Positions 20,012 through 56,924 of a stretch of 64,000 bases of DNA are shown in pieces. The notes under the pieces are model-generated. The model was not told the DNA's origin, did no database searches, and was given only the letters and a program-made list of their open reading frames with translations. Every line of letters begins with the position of its first letter. Positions within the stretch are counted from its first letter, which is position 1. This DNA is from an uncultured Haloferula sp. (lineage in GTDB: Bacteria > Verrucomicrobiota > Verrucomicrobiia > Verrucomicrobiales > Akkermansiaceae): the NCBI GenBank assembly GCA_965652295.1, contig CBFGTS010000001.1, positions 32,001-96,000 on the forward strand, written 5' to 3'. The position numbers and the translations under genes are program-made.

Positions 20012-20091
20012 GGGTGGCGAACTTGAAAGGTCCTTTCGGGCTGCGATCCGTGATCTACCATCTGCCATCCACAATCTTCCATCTCCCATCA
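20012..20091 (-). repeat. Heptamer tract plus 38-bp core, right copy of the inverted repeat
   Basis: Seven NNNATCN heptamers at 20043-20091; core 20012-20049 is 34/38 identical to the reverse complement of 16939-16976. Confidence 0.8.
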
Positions 20092-20430
20092 AGGCCGCTT
20101 GCCCTTCGGCAACGAGGCGACGACCAGGGCGTAGGAATGGTCGATCCACTCTGCGATGAGTTCGGAAGGGATGGAGCCGTCGAGGGTGACGGTGTTCCAG
20201 TGCTTCTTGTTCATGTGGTAGCCGGGGATGACGCCATCGAAGGATTCGCGGAGCTCGAGGGCGCGGTCGGGATCGCACTTCAGGTTCATGCGCGGCGGGA
20301 AGTCGGAGGGATCGGCGAGGGCGAACATCTTGCCGGCGACCTTGTAAACCAGCACGTCCGGACCGAAGGGGGTGGTCTCCTCGGCGGCGGGCTTGGAGAG
20401 GCAGTAGGCGATCGCGTCGGGGAGGTCCAT
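20089..20430 (-). CDS. MmcQ/YjbR family DNA-binding protein
   Basis: PFGPDVLVYKVAGKMFAL; NLKCDP; PGYHMNKKHWNTV; IDHSY.LV. Confidence 0.95.
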   Translation of the reverse strand: MDLPDAIAYCLSKPAAEETTPFGPDVLVYKVAGKMFALADPSDFPPRMNLKCDPDRALELRESFDGVIPGYHMNKKHWNTVTLDGSIPSELIAEWIDHSYALVVASLPKGKRP

Positions 20431-20435
20431 GGGGA

Positions 20436-20536
20436 GAGTTTGCTGGTTTTCAGCCCCGACGGGTCGGGGTGCCTGCCGGCATTTTCAGGAGAGGCGGGGG
20501 AGGGAGTTTGCTAGTGTTCAGTTTTCAGTGTTCAGG
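20436..20536 (+). repeat. About 100-bp dispersed repeat, copy 1
   Basis: GAGTTTGCTGGTTTTCAG-CCCCGACGGGTCGGGG-TGCCTGCCGGCATTTTCAGG...GTTTTCAGTGTTCAGG; near-identical copy at 22639-22736. Confidence 0.88.
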
Positions 20537-20627
20537 CAAAAGGCAAAAGGCAAAAGGCAAAAGGCGAAAGGCGAAAGGCGAGAGCGGGAGAGCGGGAGAG
20601 CGGGAGAGCGGGAGAGCGGGAGAGCGG
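20514..20627 (+). repeat. Compound tandem repeat: ten in-phase heptamers then five octamers
   Basis: GTGTTCA GTTTTCA GTGTTCA (GGCAAAA)x4 (GGCGAAA)x2 GGCGAGA (GCGGGAGA)x5. Confidence 0.92.
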
Positions 20628-22638: not shown

Positions 22639-22802
22639 GAGTTTGCTGGTTTTCAGTCCCGACGGGTCGGGGTGCCTGCCGGCATTTTCAGGGGGAGCGG
22701 GGAGACTTTGCTGGTTTTCAGTGTTCAGTGTTCAGGAAGAAGCGGTAGGCGACTGAAAAGGGCGGTAGCCATCTCTTATCTGCTATCGACGATCTCCCAT
22801 CT
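22639..22802 (+). repeat. About 100-bp dispersed repeat copy 2, followed by a heptamer tract
   Basis: 22639-22736 matches 20436-20536; GCCATCT CTTATCT GCTATCG ACGATCT CCCATCT at 22768-22802. Confidence 0.85.
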
Positions 22803-49136: not shown

Positions 49137-49165
49137 AGAGGTGGGGAGGAGCCCTCCCTACCTCT
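49137..49165. terminator. Hairpin between convergent genes, overlapping the atzF stop
   Basis: AGAGGTGGGGAGG-agc-CCTCCCTACCTCT; no clear U tail. Confidence 0.4.
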
Positions 49166-50882
49166 GTGCCAACCAAGCTTTCCAGCCGCCGAAGGAGGTG
49201 ATCTCTTCGGCTCCCTCCGTGGCGCGAGGTTCGGCGATGAATCCCGGAACCTCGCTGCCATCTTCCAGCTGTACTTTGCCGATCCCGAGAGGACCGGGGA
49301 TCTTGGAGACGAAATGGCCGAAGGCTTCGGGCGCGAGCGACCAGACTTCCACCTCAATCGCAGCACCGGAGGCGTCATCGCGCATCAGGGCCGGGCGCGG
49401 TGGGATGCCGTCGGCCGCGGGGATCGCGAACATCCGATAGATGGGTGCGGTGCGGGTTCGTGAAACGAGCCGGGCACCCCGATCGCTGAGCTGCCAGTGC
49501 AGGGGCAGGCCTTCCAGGTGGGCACCGCAGACGACCACGGGAATCCCGCCCTCGGCAGAACGAGTCCAAGTTTCACCGGTGAAACGGGAGGCCATTTCCA
49601 AGAGCGCCGCGTCCGTCCCTGCCGGTGCGGCCAGCGTCACGCCCCACGGCACCAGGCCGTCCCGAGCCCGTCCCGCGGGCACCGCCACCGCGCAGAGGTC
49701 GAGCAGGTTCATGAAATTCGTGTAGCGGCCGAGCGTGGCATTCGTTTGGTACGGATCTTCCAGTAATTGCTCCACCCGGTAGAGGCATGGCGTGGTTGGC
49801 AGAAGCAGCGCATCCACCGTTTCCCACACGGCTTCCGCCATCCGGGCGAAGGCTTTCAGCTGGTCCTGAGCCTTGAAAGTCGCCGCCGCGTTCCAGCCCT
49901 GCGAGGCTTCGAGGATCTTACGCGTCACCGGAAACACCGAGTCCGGCTTGGCGGAGACAAAATCACCCACCGCCGCCCAGCGCTCCGCCACCCACGGACC
50001 TTCGTAGAGCAGCTTGGCGGCCTCGACGAAAGGCGTGAGATCGATCTCCACCAGTTCGAATCCCAGCGCGGCCAGCCTTTCGGTTGCCGCCACGAAGAGC
50101 CCGGGTGTATCGGGATCGTCTGCAAAATCGAGCACCTTGGGCACGCCGATGCGCTTGCCCAGAGCTCCTTCCACCCCGATCCGGCGCGAGTAGGGATCCT
50201 CCGCGTCGAAGGTGCCCGCCACATTCATGACCTCCGCCGCGTCCGCCACGGTGTTGGCGAAGACCGAAACGCAGTCGAGCGAGCGACACGCAGGCACCAC
50301 GCCGCGGGTGCTGAGGAGGCCTTTCGAGGGCTTCCAGCCGATCAACTCCTGGAACGCCGCCGGCACACGGCCCGAGCCCGCGGTATCGGTGCCGAGTGAA
50401 AACACACACAGCCCGGCCGCCACTGAGGACGCACTGCCGGAGCTGGAGCCGCCGGGCAGCCAGCCGGGTGCGACGGCGTTCAGCGCCACGCCATACGGCG
50501 AGCGGGTGCCCACCAGGCCGGTGGCGAACTGGTCGAGGTTGCCCTTGCCGATGGGGATCGCGCCGGCCTCGCGCAAGCGCCGTACCACTCCGGCGTCCGC
50601 TTCTGCGACGTAGGTGTAATCCGCACAGCCCGCGGTCGTCGGCCAGCCGGCGACATCGATGTTGTCCTTCACCACGAACGGCACGCCCCACAAGGGCAGC
50701 GTCCGATCCATGGCCTCGACCTCCGCGGCCATCGCCTTGAGTTGTTCCTGCGACGGCAGGAAAATGAAGGTCGCCGGATTGTCCCACGCCGTGATGCGGC
50801 TGGAAACCTCCTCCAACACATCCACCACCGTAGCGCCATCCGCGAAGCGCGCCCTCACCCAGCTCAACGTCATCCTTTCCAT
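49158..50882 (-). CDS. atzF: Allophanate hydrolase
   Basis: PFVVKDNIDVAG; NLDQFATGLVGTRSPYG; GGSSSGS; LGTDTAGSGRVPA; C-terminal VVCGAHLEGLPL domain. Confidence 0.96.
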   Translation of the reverse strand: MERMTLSWVRARFADGATVVDVLEEVSSRITAWDNPATFIFLPSQEQLKAMAAEVEAMDRTLPLWGVPFVVKDNIDVAGWPTTAGCADYTYVAEADAGVVRRLREAGAIPIGKGNLDQFATGLVGTRSPYGVALNAVAPGWLPGGSSSGSASSVAAGLCVFSLGTDTAGSGRVPAAFQELIGWKPSKGLLSTRGVVPACRSLDCVSVFANTVADAAEVMNVAGTFDAEDPYSRRIGVEGALGKRIGVPKVLDFADDPDTPGLFVAATERLAALGFELVEIDLTPFVEAAKLLYEGPWVAERWAAVGDFVSAKPDSVFPVTRKILEASQGWNAAATFKAQDQLKAFARMAEAVWETVDALLLPTTPCLYRVEQLLEDPYQTNATLGRYTNFMNLLDLCAVAVPAGRARDGLVPWGVTLAAPAGTDAALLEMASRFTGETWTRSAEGGIPVVVCGAHLEGLPLHWQLSDRGARLVSRTRTAPIYRMFAIPAADGIPPRPALMRDDASGAAIEVEVWSLAPEAFGHFVSKIPGPLGIGKVQLEDGSEVPGFIAEPRATEGAEEITSFGGWKAWLAQR

Positions 50883-50887
50883 GGCTT

Positions 50888-53800
50888 TCAATCGGCAATC
50901 ATCAAATCTTCCACCGGCAATTCCCTCAGGATCGCCACGACTTGTCCGGCACGGACGCTGCCGCCTTCGGCAACGAGCAGCTCGATGACCTCGACGGATG
51001 TCTCCGTCTCCACCGGCATTTCCATCTTCATCGCTTCGAGAATCATCACGCCCTTGCCGGCTCCGAGTTGCCCGCCCGCCGCGGCGAGGACCTTCCACAC
51101 GCTGCCCGTCACCGGGCTTTCGAGCGCGATGCAGCCGTGGGGGATGACGAGTTCGTCCTCATCCACGACTTCGGTTTCCACCGGTGCATCCATCACCAAT
51201 CCGGCCGCTTCCCAGCGCTCGCGTTCTTCCTGAAAGGCCCGGCGCTGGTCGGTGCGGAAGGCATCGATCTCCTCCGCGTGGTCATCGAGAAAGCGTTCGT
51301 AGTCCGCGAAACGGAACACGGTTTCCTCGATCTTCAGCTTGTGTCGACCCAGGGGCACGTCCTCGCGGAAACGCAGGAGTTCCTCCGCGCTCACCGGGTA
51401 GAACCGCAGTTGGTCGAAGAATCGCAGCAGCCAGGGCTCGGAGAAATCCTCCGTTTTCCGCCAGCGGTTCCACACCGGGATGGTGCGTCCGGTGAACTGG
51501 TATCCGCCGGGGCCCTCCATGCCGTAGATGCACAGGTAGGCGCCGCCGATGCCGACCGCGTTCTCCGGCGTCCAAGTACGGGCCGGGTTGTACTTCGTCG
51601 TCACCAGCCGGTGCCGCGGATCGAGCGGCGTGGCGACCGGCGCGCCGAGGTAGACGTCGCCCAGGCCCATCACGAGATAGGAGGCGTCGAAGAAAATACG
51701 ATAAACGTCATCGATCGAGTCGAGCCCGTTGATGCGGCGGATGAACTCCAGGTTGCTCGGGCACCATGGTGCGTCGGGCCGCACGCTCTGCATGTACTTG
51801 CGGATGGCTTCCTGCGTGCTCGGGTCGTCCCAGCTCAGCGGCAGGTGGACGATCCGGGTCGGCACCTCGATTTCCGCCAGCGGCGGCAGCGACCGGAGGC
51901 CTTCATCAATGATCGCCCACAAGGCGTCGCGAGCGATCACCCGCGGGTCGAAGTGAACCTGCAACGACCGGATCCCCGGCGTGAGATCGACGATCCCGTC
52001 GATGCCCTTTTCCTTCAGCCACTCATAAACGACGTGGACCTTGAAACGCAGTTTCAGATCGAGGTGATGCGGGCCGAACTCGATCAGGAAATAGCGGTCG
52101 CCCGCACGGCGGACGACGACGGCGTCGTCCTGCTCGCCGAAGCTGGCGAGGATTGCCGATTGAAGATCGAGGATTGCCGGCTGAGGAAGAGGTAGAGCGT
52201 CGAGCGTTCCCGATAGATAGGCATCCAGAGCCTGGCGTTGGTTTTCCGCCCAGGATTCATCGACCGGGACGAAGGTGATCTTGTCTCCCGGGTGGAGCTG
52301 GCCGAGTTTCCACAGCTCGGCCTCGACCACCACGCAGGGGCAGACGAAGCCGCCGAGGCTCGGGCCGTCGGGGCCGAGAATGACGGGCATGTCTCCGGTG
52401 AAATCCACCGCTCCGATGGCGTAGGCATTGTCGTGGAGGTTCGAGGGGTGGAGTCCCGCCTCACCGCCGTCCTTGCGCGCCCACTTCGGCTTCGGACCGA
52501 TCAGGCGGACGCCCGTCCGGGCCGAGTTGTAGTGCACCTCCCAGCTGGTGTCGAAGAAGGTCCCGATGTCTTCCGGTGTGAAAAAGTCCGGGGCACCATG
52601 CGGCCCGTACAAGACCCCGATCCGCCACTCGTTGCTGATCGGAATCTCCTTCCCACAATCTTCCATCTCCAATCTCCAATCGGCAATTCCGAGCACGTCT
52701 CCCGGCAGCAAAGCCCGGCCGAACGGCCCTCCGAACCGGCCGAGCGTGAAGGTCGAGGCGCTGCCGAGATAGAGGGGCGACTCGATCCCGCCGCTGACCG
52801 CGAGGTAGCAGCGCATGCCCGCACCTTCGATGCGACCCACTTTGACGACATCGCCCGCGGCGACATCGAAAGCTCCCTCCACGGCCTCACCGTTCAGCGT
52901 CACCTTCGCCGCCGCGCCGACCACCGCGACCTTCACCGGCGTGTTGAAGCGCAGCGTCGGGCCGGTCATGGTGATCTCCAGCGCAGGCGCTCCTTCCGGA
53001 TTGCCGACGAGGCGGTTGGCGAGGCGGAACGACAGGGAATCGAACGGCCCGCAGGGCGGGACGCCGACCTCCCAATAGCCGGTGCGGCCGGGGAAGTCCT
53101 GGACTGTCGTCATGGTGCCCGGCGATTGCACATCGATGGTGCGCGGCCGGTAGTCGAAACCCGCCATGTCACGCATCGCCACGCCGCCCGTAATGTACGG
53201 CGTCCACCGTACGACCTGCCGCAGGTAGCGGAGGTTGGTTTCAATGCCGGAAATTCGCGACTCGTCGAGCGCCTGCGTCAGTTTCCTCACGGCCGAGTCA
53301 CGGTCGTCGGCATGGACCATCACCTTGCACAGCAGCGGATCGTAAAACGGGCTGACTTTGGTGCCGGGCCGCACCCAGCCGTCGCAGCGGGTCCATTGCG
53401 GGAAATCGGCCTCGGTTAGGAGTCCGGCGCTGGGGCGGAAATTCTGGTTCGGGTCTTCGGCGTAGACGCGGGCCTGGATCGCGCAGCCCTGCGGCGCCGG
53501 TACGACCCCGGGCATGACCCACTGTGGGTCGAGCGCCAGCCGGATCATCCATTCGACGAGATCGACGCCGGTGACCATCTCCGTGACCCCGTGCTCGACC
53601 TGAAGGCGGGTGTTCACTTCCAGAAAAAAGAAGTCGCTGCGATCGGCGTCGTAGATGAATTCAACCGTGCCGGCGGAGCGGTAGTTCACGCTTTCGCCGA
53701 GCTGCACCGCCGCGGCGTGAAGTGCCGCGCGGGTTTCGTCGGTGAGGCCCGGCGCGGGCGTTTCCTCGAAGACCTTCTGATTGCGGCGCTGCACCGAGCA

Positions 53801-54508
53801 ATCGCGCTCACCGAGCGCGAGCACACGGCCGTTGCCATCGCCGAAAATCTGCACCTCGACGTGGCGTCCGCGTTCGATGAAACGTTCGACGAACACCCCG
53901 CCCGAGCCGAAACTGCGTTCGCTGAGCCGCACCACGCTTTCGAACTCGCGGCGCAGCTCCTCCGGATCGCGGCAGACCTTCATGCCGATTCCGCCGCCGC
54001 CCGCCGTGCTTTTGAGCATGACCGGGAACCCGATCTCCGCCGCCGCCGTGACCGCCGCTTCGGCGTTCTCCAACAAGTCTGTCCCCGGAACCAGTGGCAC
54101 GCCCGCTTCACCTGCCAGACGACGTGCCTCATGCTTCAGTCCGAAGGCGATGATCTGTTCCGGCGTCGGCCCAAGCCACTTCACGCCGGCTTCCTCGCAC
54201 ATCCGGGCGAAGTCGGTGTTTTCGCTGAGCAGACCGTATCCAGGGAAGACCGCGGCCGCACCGGCTTCGCGGGCGATCTCGATCAGACGGTCCTTGAGAA
54301 GATAACTCTCCGAAACCGGCCCCGGCCCGAGTCGATGGGACTCGTCTGCGAGATCGACGTGGGGTGAGGCGCTATCGGGATCCGAGTAGACCGCCACGGC
54401 CTCCATGCCGAGAGCGTGTATCGTGCGGATGGCCCGAGCGGCGATCTCGCCGCGGTTGGCGATGAGGATCTTCGATTTTCGATTGATGATTGACGATTGA
54501 GACATCAT
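50888..54508 (-). CDS. uca: Urea/guanidine carboxylase (biotin-dependent)
   Basis: LIANRGEIA biotin carboxylase; FLEVNTRLQVEH; HPSNLHDNAY..DFTGD..DGPSLGGF; TKYNPARTWT; LEAMKME biotin site. Confidence 0.97.
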   Translation of the reverse strand: MMSQSSIINRKSKILIANRGEIAARAIRTIHALGMEAVAVYSDPDSASPHVDLADESHRLGPGPVSESYLLKDRLIEIAREAGAAAVFPGYGLLSENTDFARMCEEAGVKWLGPTPEQIIAFGLKHEARRLAGEAGVPLVPGTDLLENAEAAVTAAAEIGFPVMLKSTAGGGGIGMKVCRDPEELRREFESVVRLSERSFGSGGVFVERFIERGRHVEVQIFGDGNGRVLALGERDCSVQRRNQKVFEETPAPGLTDETRAALHAAAVQLGESVNYRSAGTVEFIYDADRSDFFFLEVNTRLQVEHGVTEMVTGVDLVEWMIRLALDPQWVMPGVVPAPQGCAIQARVYAEDPNQNFRPSAGLLTEADFPQWTRCDGWVRPGTKVSPFYDPLLCKVMVHADDRDSAVRKLTQALDESRISGIETNLRYLRQVVRWTPYITGGVAMRDMAGFDYRPRTIDVQSPGTMTTVQDFPGRTGYWEVGVPPCGPFDSLSFRLANRLVGNPEGAPALEITMTGPTLRFNTPVKVAVVGAAAKVTLNGEAVEGAFDVAAGDVVKVGRIEGAGMRCYLAVSGGIESPLYLGSASTFTLGRFGGPFGRALLPGDVLGIADWRLEMEDCGKEIPISNEWRIGVLYGPHGAPDFFTPEDIGTFFDTSWEVHYNSARTGVRLIGPKPKWARKDGGEAGLHPSNLHDNAYAIGAVDFTGDMPVILGPDGPSLGGFVCPCVVVEAELWKLGQLHPGDKITFVPVDESWAENQRQALDAYLSGTLDALPLPQPAILDLQSAILASFGEQDDAVVVRRAGDRYFLIEFGPHHLDLKLRFKVHVVYEWLKEKGIDGIVDLTPGIRSLQVHFDPRVIARDALWAIIDEGLRSLPPLAEIEVPTRIVHLPLSWDDPSTQEAIRKYMQSVRPDAPWCPSNLEFIRRINGLDSIDDVYRIFFDASYLVMGLGDVYLGAPVATPLDPRHRLVTTKYNPARTWTPENAVGIGGAYLCIYGMEGPGGYQFTGRTIPVWNRWRKTEDFSEPWLLRFFDQLRFYPVSAEELLRFREDVPLGRHKLKIEETVFRFADYERFLDDHAEEIDAFRTDQRRAFQEERERWEAAGLVMDAPVETEVVDEDELVIPHGCIALESPVTGSVWKVLAAAGGQLGAGKGVMILEAMKMEMPVETETSVEVIELLVAEGGSVRAGQVVAILRELPVEDLMIAD

Positions 54509-54898
54509 GGCGCTTTGCGCGTTATTCAGAGTTCTTCTTTGATGCGACCATGATGGCGCAGATTTCGTCGGCTTCCTGCAGTAGCGGTTGGACTCGTTCG
54601 GCAGGCAGGAGTTCGGCTTCGATGATCATTTCCAGCCAATAGGCAGACTCGTCGGCTTCTTCGATCACGATCCCAAGCTTGGCTTGAAACTCGGCGGTGG
54701 ATTGTCCGCGACAGGCAGCACGATAGTTCGCTCCCACCGACGACCCGGAGCGAGCGAGTTGCATCGCGATGGTTTTTCCGACGTAGGACTTGGGCAATGC
54801 CTCGACCACGCGAAATGCCCGCAGCCCGAACTGCTTGGTCCGCTTCTTGAGTTCTTCCGGTGTCATGTCTTCCAATCGTCAATCTTCAATCGAAAATC
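54474..54898. repeat. 26-bp heptamer-built inverted repeats enclosing the four-helix-bundle gene
   Basis: 54474-54499 GATTTTCGATTGATGATTGACGATTG versus reverse complement of 54873-54898 GATTTTCGATTGAAGATTGACGATTG (25/26). Confidence 0.92.
54522..54866 (-). CDS. Four-helix-bundle protein (23S rRNA intervening-sequence protein/bAvd-like family)
   Basis: ELKKRTKQFGLR..LPK..QLARSGSSVGANYRAACR.QSTAEF.AKLGIV.EEADES.YWLE..EADEI family signature. Confidence 0.93.
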   Translation of the reverse strand: MTPEELKKRTKQFGLRAFRVVEALPKSYVGKTIAMQLARSGSSVGANYRAACRGQSTAEFQAKLGIVIEEADESAYWLEMIIEAELLPAERVQPLLQEADEICAIMVASKKNSE

Positions 54899-55518
54899 AG
54901 AGCTTCCACCGGTGTCGGGTTCCAGCCGTTGCAGGGGTTGTTCAATTGTGGACAGTTCGAGATCAGGCACACGACGTCCATCGCCGCTTTCATTTCCACA
55001 TATCTTCCCGGAGCCGAGATTCCGTCGGCGAAGGAAAGCTGGCCGTCGGGGGTGACGGGGACGTTCATGAAGAGGTTGATGTTGCAGGTGAGGTCGCGCT
55101 TGGTCAGCCCGCCGCGCCATTCCTGTGCGCCGCGGATGAAGCTGTCGCGGCAGGCGTGCATGCATTCCTTGTCGTGGGCGTAGCGCATGGTGTTCGACTC
55201 GCGCGAGCAGGCACCGCCAAGCGTGTCGTGGCGGCCGCAGGTGTCGGCGGTGATCTCGAGCAGCACGTGGCCCTCGGTGCTCATCAGTCGGGTGCCGGTG
55301 GTGAGGTAGAGCGCCTGCTGGGCCTGGATGGTGCGGTCGGCGCTGTAGCGGTCGGTCGGGTCGGCGGCGCTGTAGAAAAGCGTGTCCGCGGCCTGGTTGC
55401 CTTCGAGGTCGAGGATGCGCAGCGTCTGTCCGGCCTTGATTTCATGCGTCCACCAATCGCCGGCGGGGATGATTTCCCGGTAAACGGCGGCGGCGGGATC
55501 GAGCGGGCTCTCTTTCAT
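54886..55518 (-). CDS. cgdB: Urea carboxylase-associated protein 2 (DUF1989), carboxyguanidine deiminase subunit
   Basis: [56 protein letters not shown]. Confidence 0.9.
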
Positions 55519-56234
55519 CAGAAACGAAGGGCGTGATAGGTTTCGTTGTTTTCCCAGGCTCGGAGGTTTTCCGGCCGGACGGTGAGGCTCGGGTCCCCGG
55601 CGGCGGGTGCCTCGCCGGAGAGGACCTCCAGCTTCACCCGGCGCGGATGGTAGGTGGGATCGGGATCGAGCGGGTGCTGGCAGGTGTTGAGGACGACCAA
55701 GGTGTCGATCTCGAAACGCAGCTCGATGTGATCGCCGGGCTTCGAGTGATCCGGGACGAAGGACAATGCGCCCTCGTCATTGCTGACGACCTTGCTGAAC
55801 CAGTTGAGGTTCGGCACGAGGTCCTTCTTGCCGAGGCCCCACTTGGCGAGTTCGATCAGGAAACAGTCGCGCGCGTTGCGATACCAGTCGTTGCGGGCGT
55901 CCTGGAAACTACGTTCGCCGTACTTCGACGTCACCAGCGCGGCATCCGAGTGGCCGCAGACCGTATCGTGCCAGCCGACGCTGTCAGACACGATCGAGGC
56001 GAGCAGCCGGCCCATGTCCGAGTGCAGGCAATAGGGGGCGCGGAGGTAGAAAATGTGCTGGCCCTTGAGTGTGTCCGGCATGTTGTAGCGCTCGTGCCGC
56101 TCCAGCGCGTTGTAGAGCAGCATCCCGACGTTCGCGCCGCCTTCGAGGTCGGTCAGACGCAGGCGTTTGCCACGGGAGATCACGGCCGACCACATGCCGG
56201 CGCCTTCGAGGGTTCGTTCGAGGAGGGTCTTCAT
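55518..56234 (-). CDS. cgdA: Urea carboxylase-associated protein 1 (DUF1989), carboxyguanidine deiminase subunit
   Basis: [50 protein letters not shown]. Confidence 0.9.
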
Positions 56235-56267
56235 TTCTTTCAATCGGCAATCTCCAATCGTGAATCT

Positions 56268-56726
56268 TCAGTCCATCATCCGCTTCGCGTGGAGTGGCGG
56301 AATGAGGTGCGGGGTGAGGGTGAGCTGGGCGGTTTTGACGCCCTTGCAGGTGACGAGTTTGTTGGCGATGTCGCGCAGGGTTTTCGCCGGGCCCTGCATG
56401 AGGATGACCTCGAGCATGTGGTCGTCCTCCAGCAGCACGTGCTGGGAGGAAATGACCTCGGCGATGTGCTCGCGGAAGATGCGCGAGAGGTCGCGCAGGA
56501 GCGTGCTTTTCGACTCGTCGTAAACCAGCGTCAGCGTGCCGGCCATGACCTCGGTGCCGATGCGGCTGAGGTGCTGGGCGGCGTGCTGGTGGATCATTTC
56601 GGCGACCGCCTGCGAGCGGCTGTCGAAACCGCGGGCGACCACCAGCCGGTCGAGGAACTGGTAGGTTTCCTCGGGCATCGACACGGTCACCCGCTTCACT
56701 CCTTCGTTGGTCTCGTCGTTCGGCAT
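56268..56726 (-). CDS. NikR-like CopG/ribbon-helix-helix transcriptional regulator
   Basis: KRVTVSMP..LD..V..RGF.SRSQA (RHH); GTLTLVYD and LEVILMQG (NikR C-terminal ACT-like domain). Confidence 0.88.
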   Translation of the reverse strand: MPNDETNEGVKRVTVSMPEETYQFLDRLVVARGFDSRSQAVAEMIHQHAAQHLSRIGTEVMAGTLTLVYDESKSTLLRDLSRIFREHIAEVISSQHVLLEDDHMLEVILMQGPAKTLRDIANKLVTCKGVKTAQLTLTPHLIPPLHAKRMMD

Positions 56727-56756
56727 CGCCGACCGCTTACAGCACATCGGGGGCCA

Positions 56757-56784
56757 GTATGAAGAAATTTTTCATTCGTCACAC
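56757..56784. promoter_or_regulatory. NikR-type operator upstream of the carboxylase operon
   Basis: GTATGA-N16-TCACAC, one mismatch from the E. coli NikR operator GTATGA-N16-TCATAC; AT-rich spacer; 30 bp before the regulator ATG. Confidence 0.8.
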
Positions 56785-56924
56785 TTTGTGCAGGGAAAAA
56801 GAAGCGTGGGACCCCGGGGCAAATCATGAAAGACCGTAGAAATTCGCCAAAACCCGGGCCGCGGAGCTTCCTGACACCGGCAAGCGGTTCCACGTCCGGT
56901 TTCAGGAGTGAGAGGGCGGTGTCG

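Follow-up and report, generated by a model that had tools for sequence, protein, structure and literature searches.

We analysed a 64,000-nt stretch of DNA (the window) from an uncultured Haloferula sp. (GenBank assembly GCA_965652295.1, contig CBFGTS010000001.1, positions 32,001 to 96,000), in which a urea or guanidine carboxylase operon is interspersed with tandem arrays of 7-nt units. Two of these arrays, inverted relative to each other, are the arms of a cassette that carries a small four-helix-bundle gene of family PF05635 between the UAAP2 and carboxylase genes. Coordinates are those of the window unless a contig (C) or a locus (L) is named, and G000 denotes this genome as a whole. All genes of the operon lie on the minus strand and were identified as follows:

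56268..56747, minus strand: NikR-like regulator (RHH and NikR_C; profile matches)
55518..56243, minus strand: UAAP1 (TIGR03425, E 2.5e-94)
54886..55518, minus strand: UAAP2 (TIGR03424, E 4.7e-97)
54522..54866, minus strand: four-helix-bundle gene, 114 aa, PF05635 (23S rRNA intervening-sequence protein), the cargo of the cassette
50888..54508, minus strand: urea (or guanidine) carboxylase, 1206 aa (TIGR02712, 1776 bits)
49158..50882, minus strand: allophanate hydrolase (NF006043, E 2.7e-228)

UAAP1 and UAAP2 had been named cgdA and cgdB in the initial annotation, and we take them to be subunits of carboxyguanidine deiminase. The likely start of UAAP1 is the ATG at 56235. Rfam gave no match at the gathering scores in the window and none at E of 1 or less in 50700-56900. 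Six period-7 tracts, labelled T1 to T6 in mRNA order, were all found at the positions claimed for them:

56240..56274, minus strand: T1, solo array, sense AGATTCA CGATTGG AGATTGC CGATTGA
54873..54898, minus strand: T2, 5' arm of the cassette, sense GATTTTCGATTGAAGATTGACGATTG
54474..54499, minus strand: T3, arm on the 3' side of the cassette, which forms codons 3-11 of the carboxylase
52655..52689, minus strand: T4, in-frame array of GATTG type in sense, free of TGA, encoding GIADWRLEMEDCG
52150..52177, minus strand: T5, in-frame array, CAATC-type in sense, encoding PQPAILDLQSAIL
50888..50910, minus strand: T6, array at the 3' end of the carboxylase gene, encoding EDLMIAD and the stop

All six tracts are of a single family, which reads GATTGNN on the mRNA strand and CAATCNN on the complement, and Tandem Repeats Finder called period 7 at 52656-52681, 54480-54500 and 54868-54898. 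On the plus strand, the tracts at 56240-56274, 54872-54899, 52655-52689 and 50888-50910 are CAATC-type and those at 54473-54500 and 52150-52177 are GATTG-type. Because all operon genes are on the minus strand, the types follow each other in the mRNA as G, G, C, G, C, G; this order is mixed and is not the strict alternation of orientation that had been proposed. The tracts do write both termini of the carboxylase, as claimed (start MMSQSSIINRKSKILIANRG, end ...ELPVEDLMIAD), and the stop codons of UAAP2 (TGA, 54888-54886) and of the carboxylase (TGA, 50890-50888) sit within the tract at 54872-54899, which contains T2, and within T6, respectively, again in agreement with the initial annotation.

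T2 and T3 form a 26-nt inverted repeat with one mismatch (25/26 complementary) around the PF05635 gene. The cassette thus has terminal inverted repeats of the kind found in MITEs (miniature inverted-repeat transposable elements), and the ATG of the four-helix-bundle gene lies 6 nt past T2. On the far side, the N-terminal carboxylase residues MMSQSSIINRKS... are drawn from T3. When the 451-nt transcript was folded, T2 and T3 made up the closing helix around the whole small open reading frame (ORF), with a minimum free energy of -161.9 kcal/mol (z -3.12; 0/100 shuffles equally stable), and the T2:T3 duplex was predicted at -38.7 kcal/mol (z -12). The extended predicted stem also spans the start codons of both the small gene and the carboxylase.

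The protein encoded by the cassette matched PF05635 with an E value of 4.5e-15 (56.2 bits where the cut-off is 33.8; positions 7-104 of the 106 in the profile) and PDB entry 2rld_A with an E value of 4.5e-15; 2rld, the nearest solved relative, contains five chains of one sequence. The family motif, GxxRxxxSxxxNxxE as given in the accessible part of PMC3936711, is represented by R39, S43 and N47, and in an alignment read by eye the E column holds A (SVGANYRAA). The string ANYRAA is present in the window protein, the G021 protein and the G023 homologue (own translation), compared with SNIAEG in most family members; on this reading the nearly invariant glutamate of the family motif would have been lost. 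Between G000 and its closest relative, G021, the ratio of nonsynonymous to synonymous substitution rates was 0.074 for the four-helix-bundle gene, 0.10 for UAAP2 and 0.085 for the carboxylase. The four-helix-bundle gene is under purifying selection.

Only G000 and G021, whose carboxylases are 89% identical, have the gene at the UAAP2-carboxylase junction (2/20 orthologous operons). In the cassette-free operons a distance of 20-255 nt separates the two genes, or 386 nt in the case of the outgroup L017, and the gap is often filled with unrelated hairpin repeats; in L012 it holds a GATTG...CAATC pair and no ORF. The outer 13 nt of T2, GATTTTCGATTGA, are native UAAP2 coding sequence that is found in cassette-free relatives too, and T3 terminates in an inverted copy of the same 13 nt. 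A read joint that would skip the cassette (54462-54926) was not used, as it came from one contig with a depth of 2.8 and had a 20-nt side at 90% likeness. The loose ends at 54472/54473 in all four runs, where many contigs cease to match at the edge of the conserved biotin-carboxylase N-terminus, presumably belong to carboxylase contigs of other organisms. A link between the four-helix-bundle gene and biotin carboxylases was considered as well, given homologues of 52-63% identity near accC in G024, G018 and G023; it was dropped because the position relative to the carboxylase varies and thiE intervenes in G023.

The packaging of PF05635 genes between inverted arms was then scored in other genomes with two measures, an inverted-repeat score of at least 12 and a stricter period-7 measure. 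In G000, inverted arms with a best period of 7 were found at 3/3 PF05635 genes, and the arm units were GATTG in the window, GATGG at the gene between pheS and pheT, and TTCAGTG at the gene on contig 28. The second of these loci is:

G000:C7:152104-152640 (L178): second four-helix-bundle cassette, with GATGG arms, between pheS and pheT

Within the genus, 22 of 25 loci scored at least 12, every one of them with a best period of 7. A phylum sample (30 loci from 30 genomes) gave 19/30 by the score and 13/30 by the stricter measure. The cross-phylum set comprised 80 loci, of which 79 had full flanks, and drew on many bacterial phyla and on two archaeal records; its loci are relatives of the mainstream PF05635 subfamily and not of the divergent window protein. 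Here 45 of the 79 scored at least 12, 41 of the 79 passed the stricter measure, and the best period was 7 in 42 of the 43 long arms. Random places in G000 yielded 1/300 and 0/300 on the two measures, and shifted places in the same loci 0/52 on both. Inverted heptamer arrays thus flank such genes in many phyla (41/79 against 0/352 in the controls), which supports the earlier proposal of a repeat family around four-helix-bundle genes.

The arms of the cross-phylum cassettes had a median length of 30 nt, about four units. In 37 of 45 cassettes the 5' arm was rich in G and poor in C, and there were four ties (overall G 480 vs C 174, L051-L130); because an inverted repeat reads alike from both strands, this G-richness is a real asymmetry of the element. 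The best-rotation match between units was 6.0/7 for proteins more than 70% identical, 4.43 for those at 60-70% and 3.99 for those at 50-60%; the background was 3.69. Likeness of the unit is confined to close proteins, and therefore the unit sequence drifts while the period stays with the cargo. A strict rule that each protein branch has its own unit proved only partly true, the likeness rising above background only beyond about 50% identity, and likeness in that range is also explained by common descent of whole cassettes.

A contrasting arm period was found at genes of another family, PDDEXK_3 (PF13366), of which G000 contains the following:

G000:C6:28946-29284: PDDEXK_3 gene
G000:C8:100371-100709: PDDEXK_3 gene
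G000:C12:8307-8624: PDDEXK_3 gene

Inverted arms flanked 3/3 of these genes and 25/29 in the phylum (L180-L209), with units such as CACGGAGGx and CACGAAATA. Their best period was 9 in 15 cases, 8 in five, 10 in two, 7 in one and 6 in one. It follows that the arm period goes with the cargo, being 7 nt for the four-helix-bundle genes and about 9 nt for the PDDEXK_3 genes.

The period of 7 is also a property of the array family at large. Over the 4.37-Mb assembly, consecutive CAATC pentamers lay 7 nt apart 29 times and consecutive GATTG pentamers 10 times, and any other spacing from 4 to 30 occurred at most seven times. When a family array was defined as a run of three CAATC/GATTG cores with no more than two mismatches, the whole genome held 33 at spacing 7 compared with 10, 5, 4, 8 and 3 at spacings 5, 6, 8, 9 and 10; tandem arrays of any unit numbered 35 at period 7 and 3 at period 8. 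With at least three head-to-tail 7-nt units, and commoner than other periods, these are heptameric tandem repeats. Seven of the 33 family arrays lie inside the window, six of them within 5.4 kb, where about 0.04 would be expected under a uniform distribution. The genome-wide excess of period 7, together with the six arrays in 5.4 kb, excludes a chance origin of the cluster. The 18-mer CCACAATCTTCCATCTCC, which had been reported as shared exactly between two tracts, indeed occurs twice, at 20069 and 52653 (0 expected from 100 shuffles). The first copy belongs to a seventh array in the window:

20053..20090, minus strand: array with GATGG/GATTG units in sense, from the same superfamily, with the exact 18-mer in common with T4

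Cognate arrays cluster around cassettes. Extra cognate arrays were detected in the 1.5-kb flanks of 6/25 cassettes, compared with 0/100 non-cognate comparisons. Among the 74 period-7 arrays of G000, 30 had a neighbour within 6 kb, whereas 1000 trials of random placement averaged 13 and never exceeded 28. In G023, where the homologue lies downstream of thiE and has CGGAACG arms, six arrays, including one that lies in frame in thiE, occupy 1.7 kb, and this cluster accounts for 12/61 of the pattern matches of the genome. The number of CAATC-array matches per genome ranged from 0 to 371 in the genus.

The solo arrays of the window lie at gene junctions or within the carboxylase. T1 fills the spacer from the stop codon of the NikR-like gene (56270-56268) to the UAAP1 ATG (56235), and T6 ends 6 nt ahead of the allophanate hydrolase ATG (50882). 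The same distance of 6 nt separates the array end from the ATG in T1, T2 and T6 (GATTG-AAAGAA-ATG, GATTG-GAAGAC-ATG and GATTG-AAAGCC-ATG). The core (A)ATTGCCGATTG or its complement is common to T1, T4, T5 and T6, and the 16 nt GATTGCCGATTGAAAG are common to T1 and T6. In G021, T1 is absent from the same junction, where the stop-start distance is 4 nt, and T6 is present with a different unit count; GATTG arrays were also found at the T6 site in L005, L007, L008 and L015.

T4 sits in a carboxylase loop of variable length (about residues 607-618) and T5 in a linker (about residues 778-787), and both positions vary in length and sequence among 20 carboxylase orthologues. The T5 site carries CAATC arrays in L001-L004, L008 and L009, CCATC arrays in L005, L007 and L011, and no arrays in the outgroups. 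The T4 site is GATTG-type in L001 and L002 and CAATC-type in L005, L008 and L009; in L003, L004, L006, L007 and L011 the loop holds small in-frame palindromes (e.g., GGAGGACAGGAGTGTCCTCC) and no heptamers. The carboxylase loop and the UAAP2-carboxylase junction are thus both hot spots for repeat DNA. In-frame GATTG units contain no TGA (TGG and TGT are used), and junction arrays use GATTGA, which gives stop codons. Because GATTGA holds a TGA that is kept only at gene ends, and CAATC is open in all frames, the orientation of the arrays would follow from coding constraints.

In-frame arrays were seen in two other genes; labels of arrays as lying in ORFs that were derived from GC3 proved unreliable and were set aside. 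A 1950-aa open frame with UvrA-type domains (G000:C7:140860-146712; L178:861-6713, minus strand) contains five in-frame period-7 arrays of several unit families, so the carboxylase is not the only large enzyme to contain heptamer arrays. In thiE, an in-frame CGCTCCC/CGTTCCG array is common to G000 (C10:178314-178347) and G023 (C2:304590-304620), with no four-helix-bundle gene nearby in G000 and a cassette at the thiE stop in G023.

Near-identical DNA was recovered on contigs of independent metagenomes. A contig of run X3 that extends across the whole cassette has an extra T2 unit, CAATCGT, inserted at 54872, so that the number of units differs by one between close strains, and the same run has a 1-nt deletion at 54653, inside the small ORF. 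At positions 52675-6 of T4, runs X3, X6 and X10 have GG for TC (CAATCGG for CAATCTC). Compared across strains and species, the solo arrays are gained, lost and resized in 7-nt steps. In the relative G016, termini of about 45 nt and subterminal sequence are common to the four-helix-bundle cassette of that genome and to at least 13 elements with lengths of 146-312 bp; judging by these shared ends, the short elements seem to stand to the cassette as MITEs stand to their parent. The G016 family (L153, L166-L177) has CAATC-heptamer termini and two kinds of inner end, and its gene-bearing copy is 526 bp long with the polarity 5'-CAATC...GATTG-3', opposite to that of the window cassette. G000 holds only three short hairpins of any heptamer family.

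The data suggest that the locus combines a cassette with solo arrays of the same family, all read in a 7-nt register, and we regard this explanation as a whole as probable. A cassette of about 425 bp (54474-54898) would have entered the UAAP2-carboxylase junction in the common ancestor of G000 and G021. In the transcript its arms would pair and loop out the small gene, as the predicted helix implies; the paired arms would bury the start regions of the cassette gene and the carboxylase and bring the UAAP2 stop beside the carboxylase start. By analogy with rRNA intervening sequences, RNase III may cut the helix, or ribosomes that terminate in the 5' arm may open it, and either event could make the insertion tolerable in the operon. 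T1, T4, T5 and T6, as members of the same family, would have accumulated locally, T1 and T6 filling junctions and T4 and T5 settling in frame in two variable surface linkers, with T3 and T6 supplying the N- and C-terminal residues of the carboxylase. Turnover would proceed through changes of whole 7-nt units and copying between arrays. Since the period is kept with the cargo and the unit is not, and since the PDDEXK_3 arms have a period of about 9 nt, we infer that the arrays are nucleic-acid sites read by a four-helix-bundle ring or by the machinery that moves the cassette; the reading or mobilising activity may seed cognate arrays nearby.

A more specific version of this explanation is tentative, and we think it more apt to fail in some part than to hold throughout. 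The protein would read nucleic acid, single-stranded or double-stranded, one 7-nt unit per subunit, with its own arms as cognate sites. The gene and its arrays would then constitute a transposase-free, self-recognising element that spreads in the form of a hairpin cassette, gives off short derivatives without coding capacity and seeds arrays in cis at junctions and in frame, with a parallel in the PDDEXK_3 cassettes at a register of about 9 nt.

Several findings weigh against a cassette that is read in register and seeds its own arrays. The initial annotation had proposed a repeat family that spreads around four-helix-bundle genes, to be tested on orthologous operons without the gene. T2 and T3 are indeed the inverted arms of the gene; strict dependence on it fails, because the orthologous operons of five species that lack the gene locally (L005, L007, L008, L011 and L015) carry strong arrays in the carboxylase, at the linker and terminal sites used here, so that the refuting condition set for the proposal was partly borne out. 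Of the 74 period-7 arrays in G000, 64 lack an inverted partner at distances up to 900 nt, and the genome yielded only three four-helix-bundle genes. The genus member G013 has 15 CAATC-array matches and no PF05635 match (96% completeness), and G169 has a 56%-identical homologue yet 0 CAATC matches. Homologues of 52-60% identity carry the units GAAAAxT, CGGAACG and GCGGAGT. Neither this cassette nor the G016 copies showed a target-site duplication on inspection by eye, and no short derivatives of this cassette were seen in G000. The conserved period could also reflect the descent of two separate cassette lineages.

Some of the same facts are what would be expected if no protein were involved and ordinary slippage-prone 7-nt repeats had grown from native seeds, with bundle genes inserting into the arrays or persisting in them and with no function or link to the protein. 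Such seeds would be the GATTGA at the stop of UAAP2 and, in the S-A-I-L codons, GCAATCC, and the native UAAP2 ends of relatives already read GATTTTCGAyTrA; the 7-nt unit indel between strains, the solo state of 64/74 arrays and the arrays in a genome without a PF05635 match fit as well, and heptamer over-representation is on record in the accessible parts of PMC4692102 and PMC4679880. Slippage leaves unexplained the inverted complementary arms (22/25 in the genus and 45/79 across phyla, against 1/300 and 0/52 in the controls), the arms of about 9 nt at PDDEXK_3 genes, the 16-18-mers that recur between arrays and the at least 13 short elements of G016 with cassette termini, and we consider it unlikely. 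A host regulatory switch, in which alternative pairings of the four GATTG-type and two CAATC-type tracts set the expression or stability of operon segments, has a still smaller chance of being right. The long-range pairings put forward in the initial annotation are energetically plausible: besides the T2:T3 helix, which spans two start regions, T4 finds its best partner in T5 (duplex -36.7 kcal/mol, z -5.2), and T2:T5, T1:T5 and T1:T3 reach -30.3, -28.4 and -27.6 kcal/mol (z -5 to -7 vs shuffles). In L008, however, both linker arrays are CAATC-type in sense and the T4:T5 pairing cannot form, a point that counts against our preferred explanation too. The set of tracts is also not conserved (T1 is missing in G021), the cassette is missing from 18/20 orthologous operons, the orientation and unit of the linker arrays vary between species, and no Rfam family matched.

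Equally improbable, in our view, is that the junction arrays are portable modules for translation initiation or coupling, each providing an upstream stop and an unstructured or ribosome-attracting leader at 6 nt, with the in-frame copies as by-products. T1, T2 and T6 all end exactly 6 nt before an ATG, many other family arrays abut a start codon on either strand (by eye), and TAACTGA repeats of Beggiatoaceae likewise lie just upstream of starts (accessible part of PMC4679880). Relatives translate the same genes without arrays, though, the arrays abut starts in both orientations, and the inverted arms and cargo-specific period are left without an explanation. Each of these alternatives covers part of the data, and none accounts for inverted, cargo-specific arms.

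The cassette resembles the intervening sequences (IVSs) of 23S rRNA, of which Leptospira presumably offers a further ORF-bearing case, in its PF05635 cargo and in termini that pair, here as predicted, to give a long stem by which the ORF is looped out of the RNA that hosts it. The helix-45 IVS of Coxiella burnetii, which carries an S23p ORF, has three tandem heptamers (GACAGAT x3) at its 5' end, upstream of the ORF; RNase III cuts at the first repeat and the number of heptamers varies between strains (PMC4990558, accessible part). Tandem heptamers at the 5' end and a strain-variable number of them are likewise found here. Unlike a 23S rRNA IVS, the window cassette lies at the UAAP2/carboxylase junction and not in a 23S rRNA helix, so that its host is a polycistronic mRNA; both its arms are 4-heptamer arrays, one arm is translated within the neighbouring enzyme, and solo arrays of the same family surround it. 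Four-helix-bundle genes have also been described inserted between cas genes (PMC3936711) and in rRNA insertions (candidate phyla radiation [CPR] preprint), and the accessible parts of PMC4990558 and the CPR preprint leave PF05635 without a known function decades after the first descriptions of rRNA IVSs. Our literature search found the heptamer-arm architecture only for the Coxiella rRNA IVS; papers or closed supplements beyond that search may hold more.

Heptamer repeats have a literature of their own, to which the cyanobacterial short tandemly repeated repetitive (STRR) sequences presumably belong as similar repeats. Over-represented heptamers include GGGAATC in Xanthomonas and GGGGAYT in Nostoc (PMC4692102), and TAACTGA heptamers occur in Beggiatoaceae, cyanobacteria and Bacteroidetes (PMC4679880). 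As far as the accessible parts of these papers go, the published repeats are like ours in having a unit of 7, typically about four units, positions at gene boundaries and often just upstream of starts, sometimes inverted pairs, lengths that differ between close relatives, and no known function; neither paper mentions four-helix-bundle or intervening-sequence genes in those parts. In the window, by contrast, two arrays are the arms of a gene, the family clusters round that gene, and in-frame arrays are prominent. Because heptamer arrays and ORF-bearing rRNA IVSs are both in print, the earlier description of an undescribed system applies only in part. What this analysis adds is the pile-up of solo cognate arrays, the in-frame use in an enzyme, the contrasting period of the PDDEXK_3 cassettes and the 7-nt unit polymorphism between strains.

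MITEs, REPINs (hairpin-forming repetitive extragenic palindrome doublets) and Correia elements are, in the accessible parts of PMC2229807, PMC3116915, PMC2649163 and PMC10969869, short inverted-repeat elements at gene junctions that may form RNA hairpins, as here, and Correia elements are substrates of RNase III. The short elements of G016 share termini with a gene-bearing copy, as MITEs do with their parents. Unlike those known elements, the cassette has no transposase or gene of the RAYT type (REP-associated tyrosine transposase), its sole cargo being a 114-aa helical bundle, its arms are internally periodic (7 nt), and it shows no target-site duplication by eye. Rickettsia palindromic elements are in-frame insertions in protein genes and occupy surface loops of essential enzymes. 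They are palindromes of about 100-150 bp, whereas the elements here are tandem heptamers; repeat DNA is tolerated in frame in both.

The locus ties otherwise unexplained heptamer arrays to PF05635 genes through the arms, the cargo-linked register and the local pile-up, and PF05635 proteins number hundreds per phylum sample. Starts, stops and linker residues annotated beside such cassettes can be repeat-derived.

Further repeats were observed elsewhere in the window. The array at 20053-20090 starts at the stop codon of a 113-aa ORF (20089-20430). Upstream of this small ORF, compound repeats extend over 20440-20627, beginning with TTTTCAG/TGTTCAG heptamers, which are of the family that makes up the arms of the contig-28 four-helix-bundle gene, and continuing with GGCAAAA x6.6 and then the octamer GAGAGCGG x6. 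A further TTCAGTG array lies at 22717-22735.

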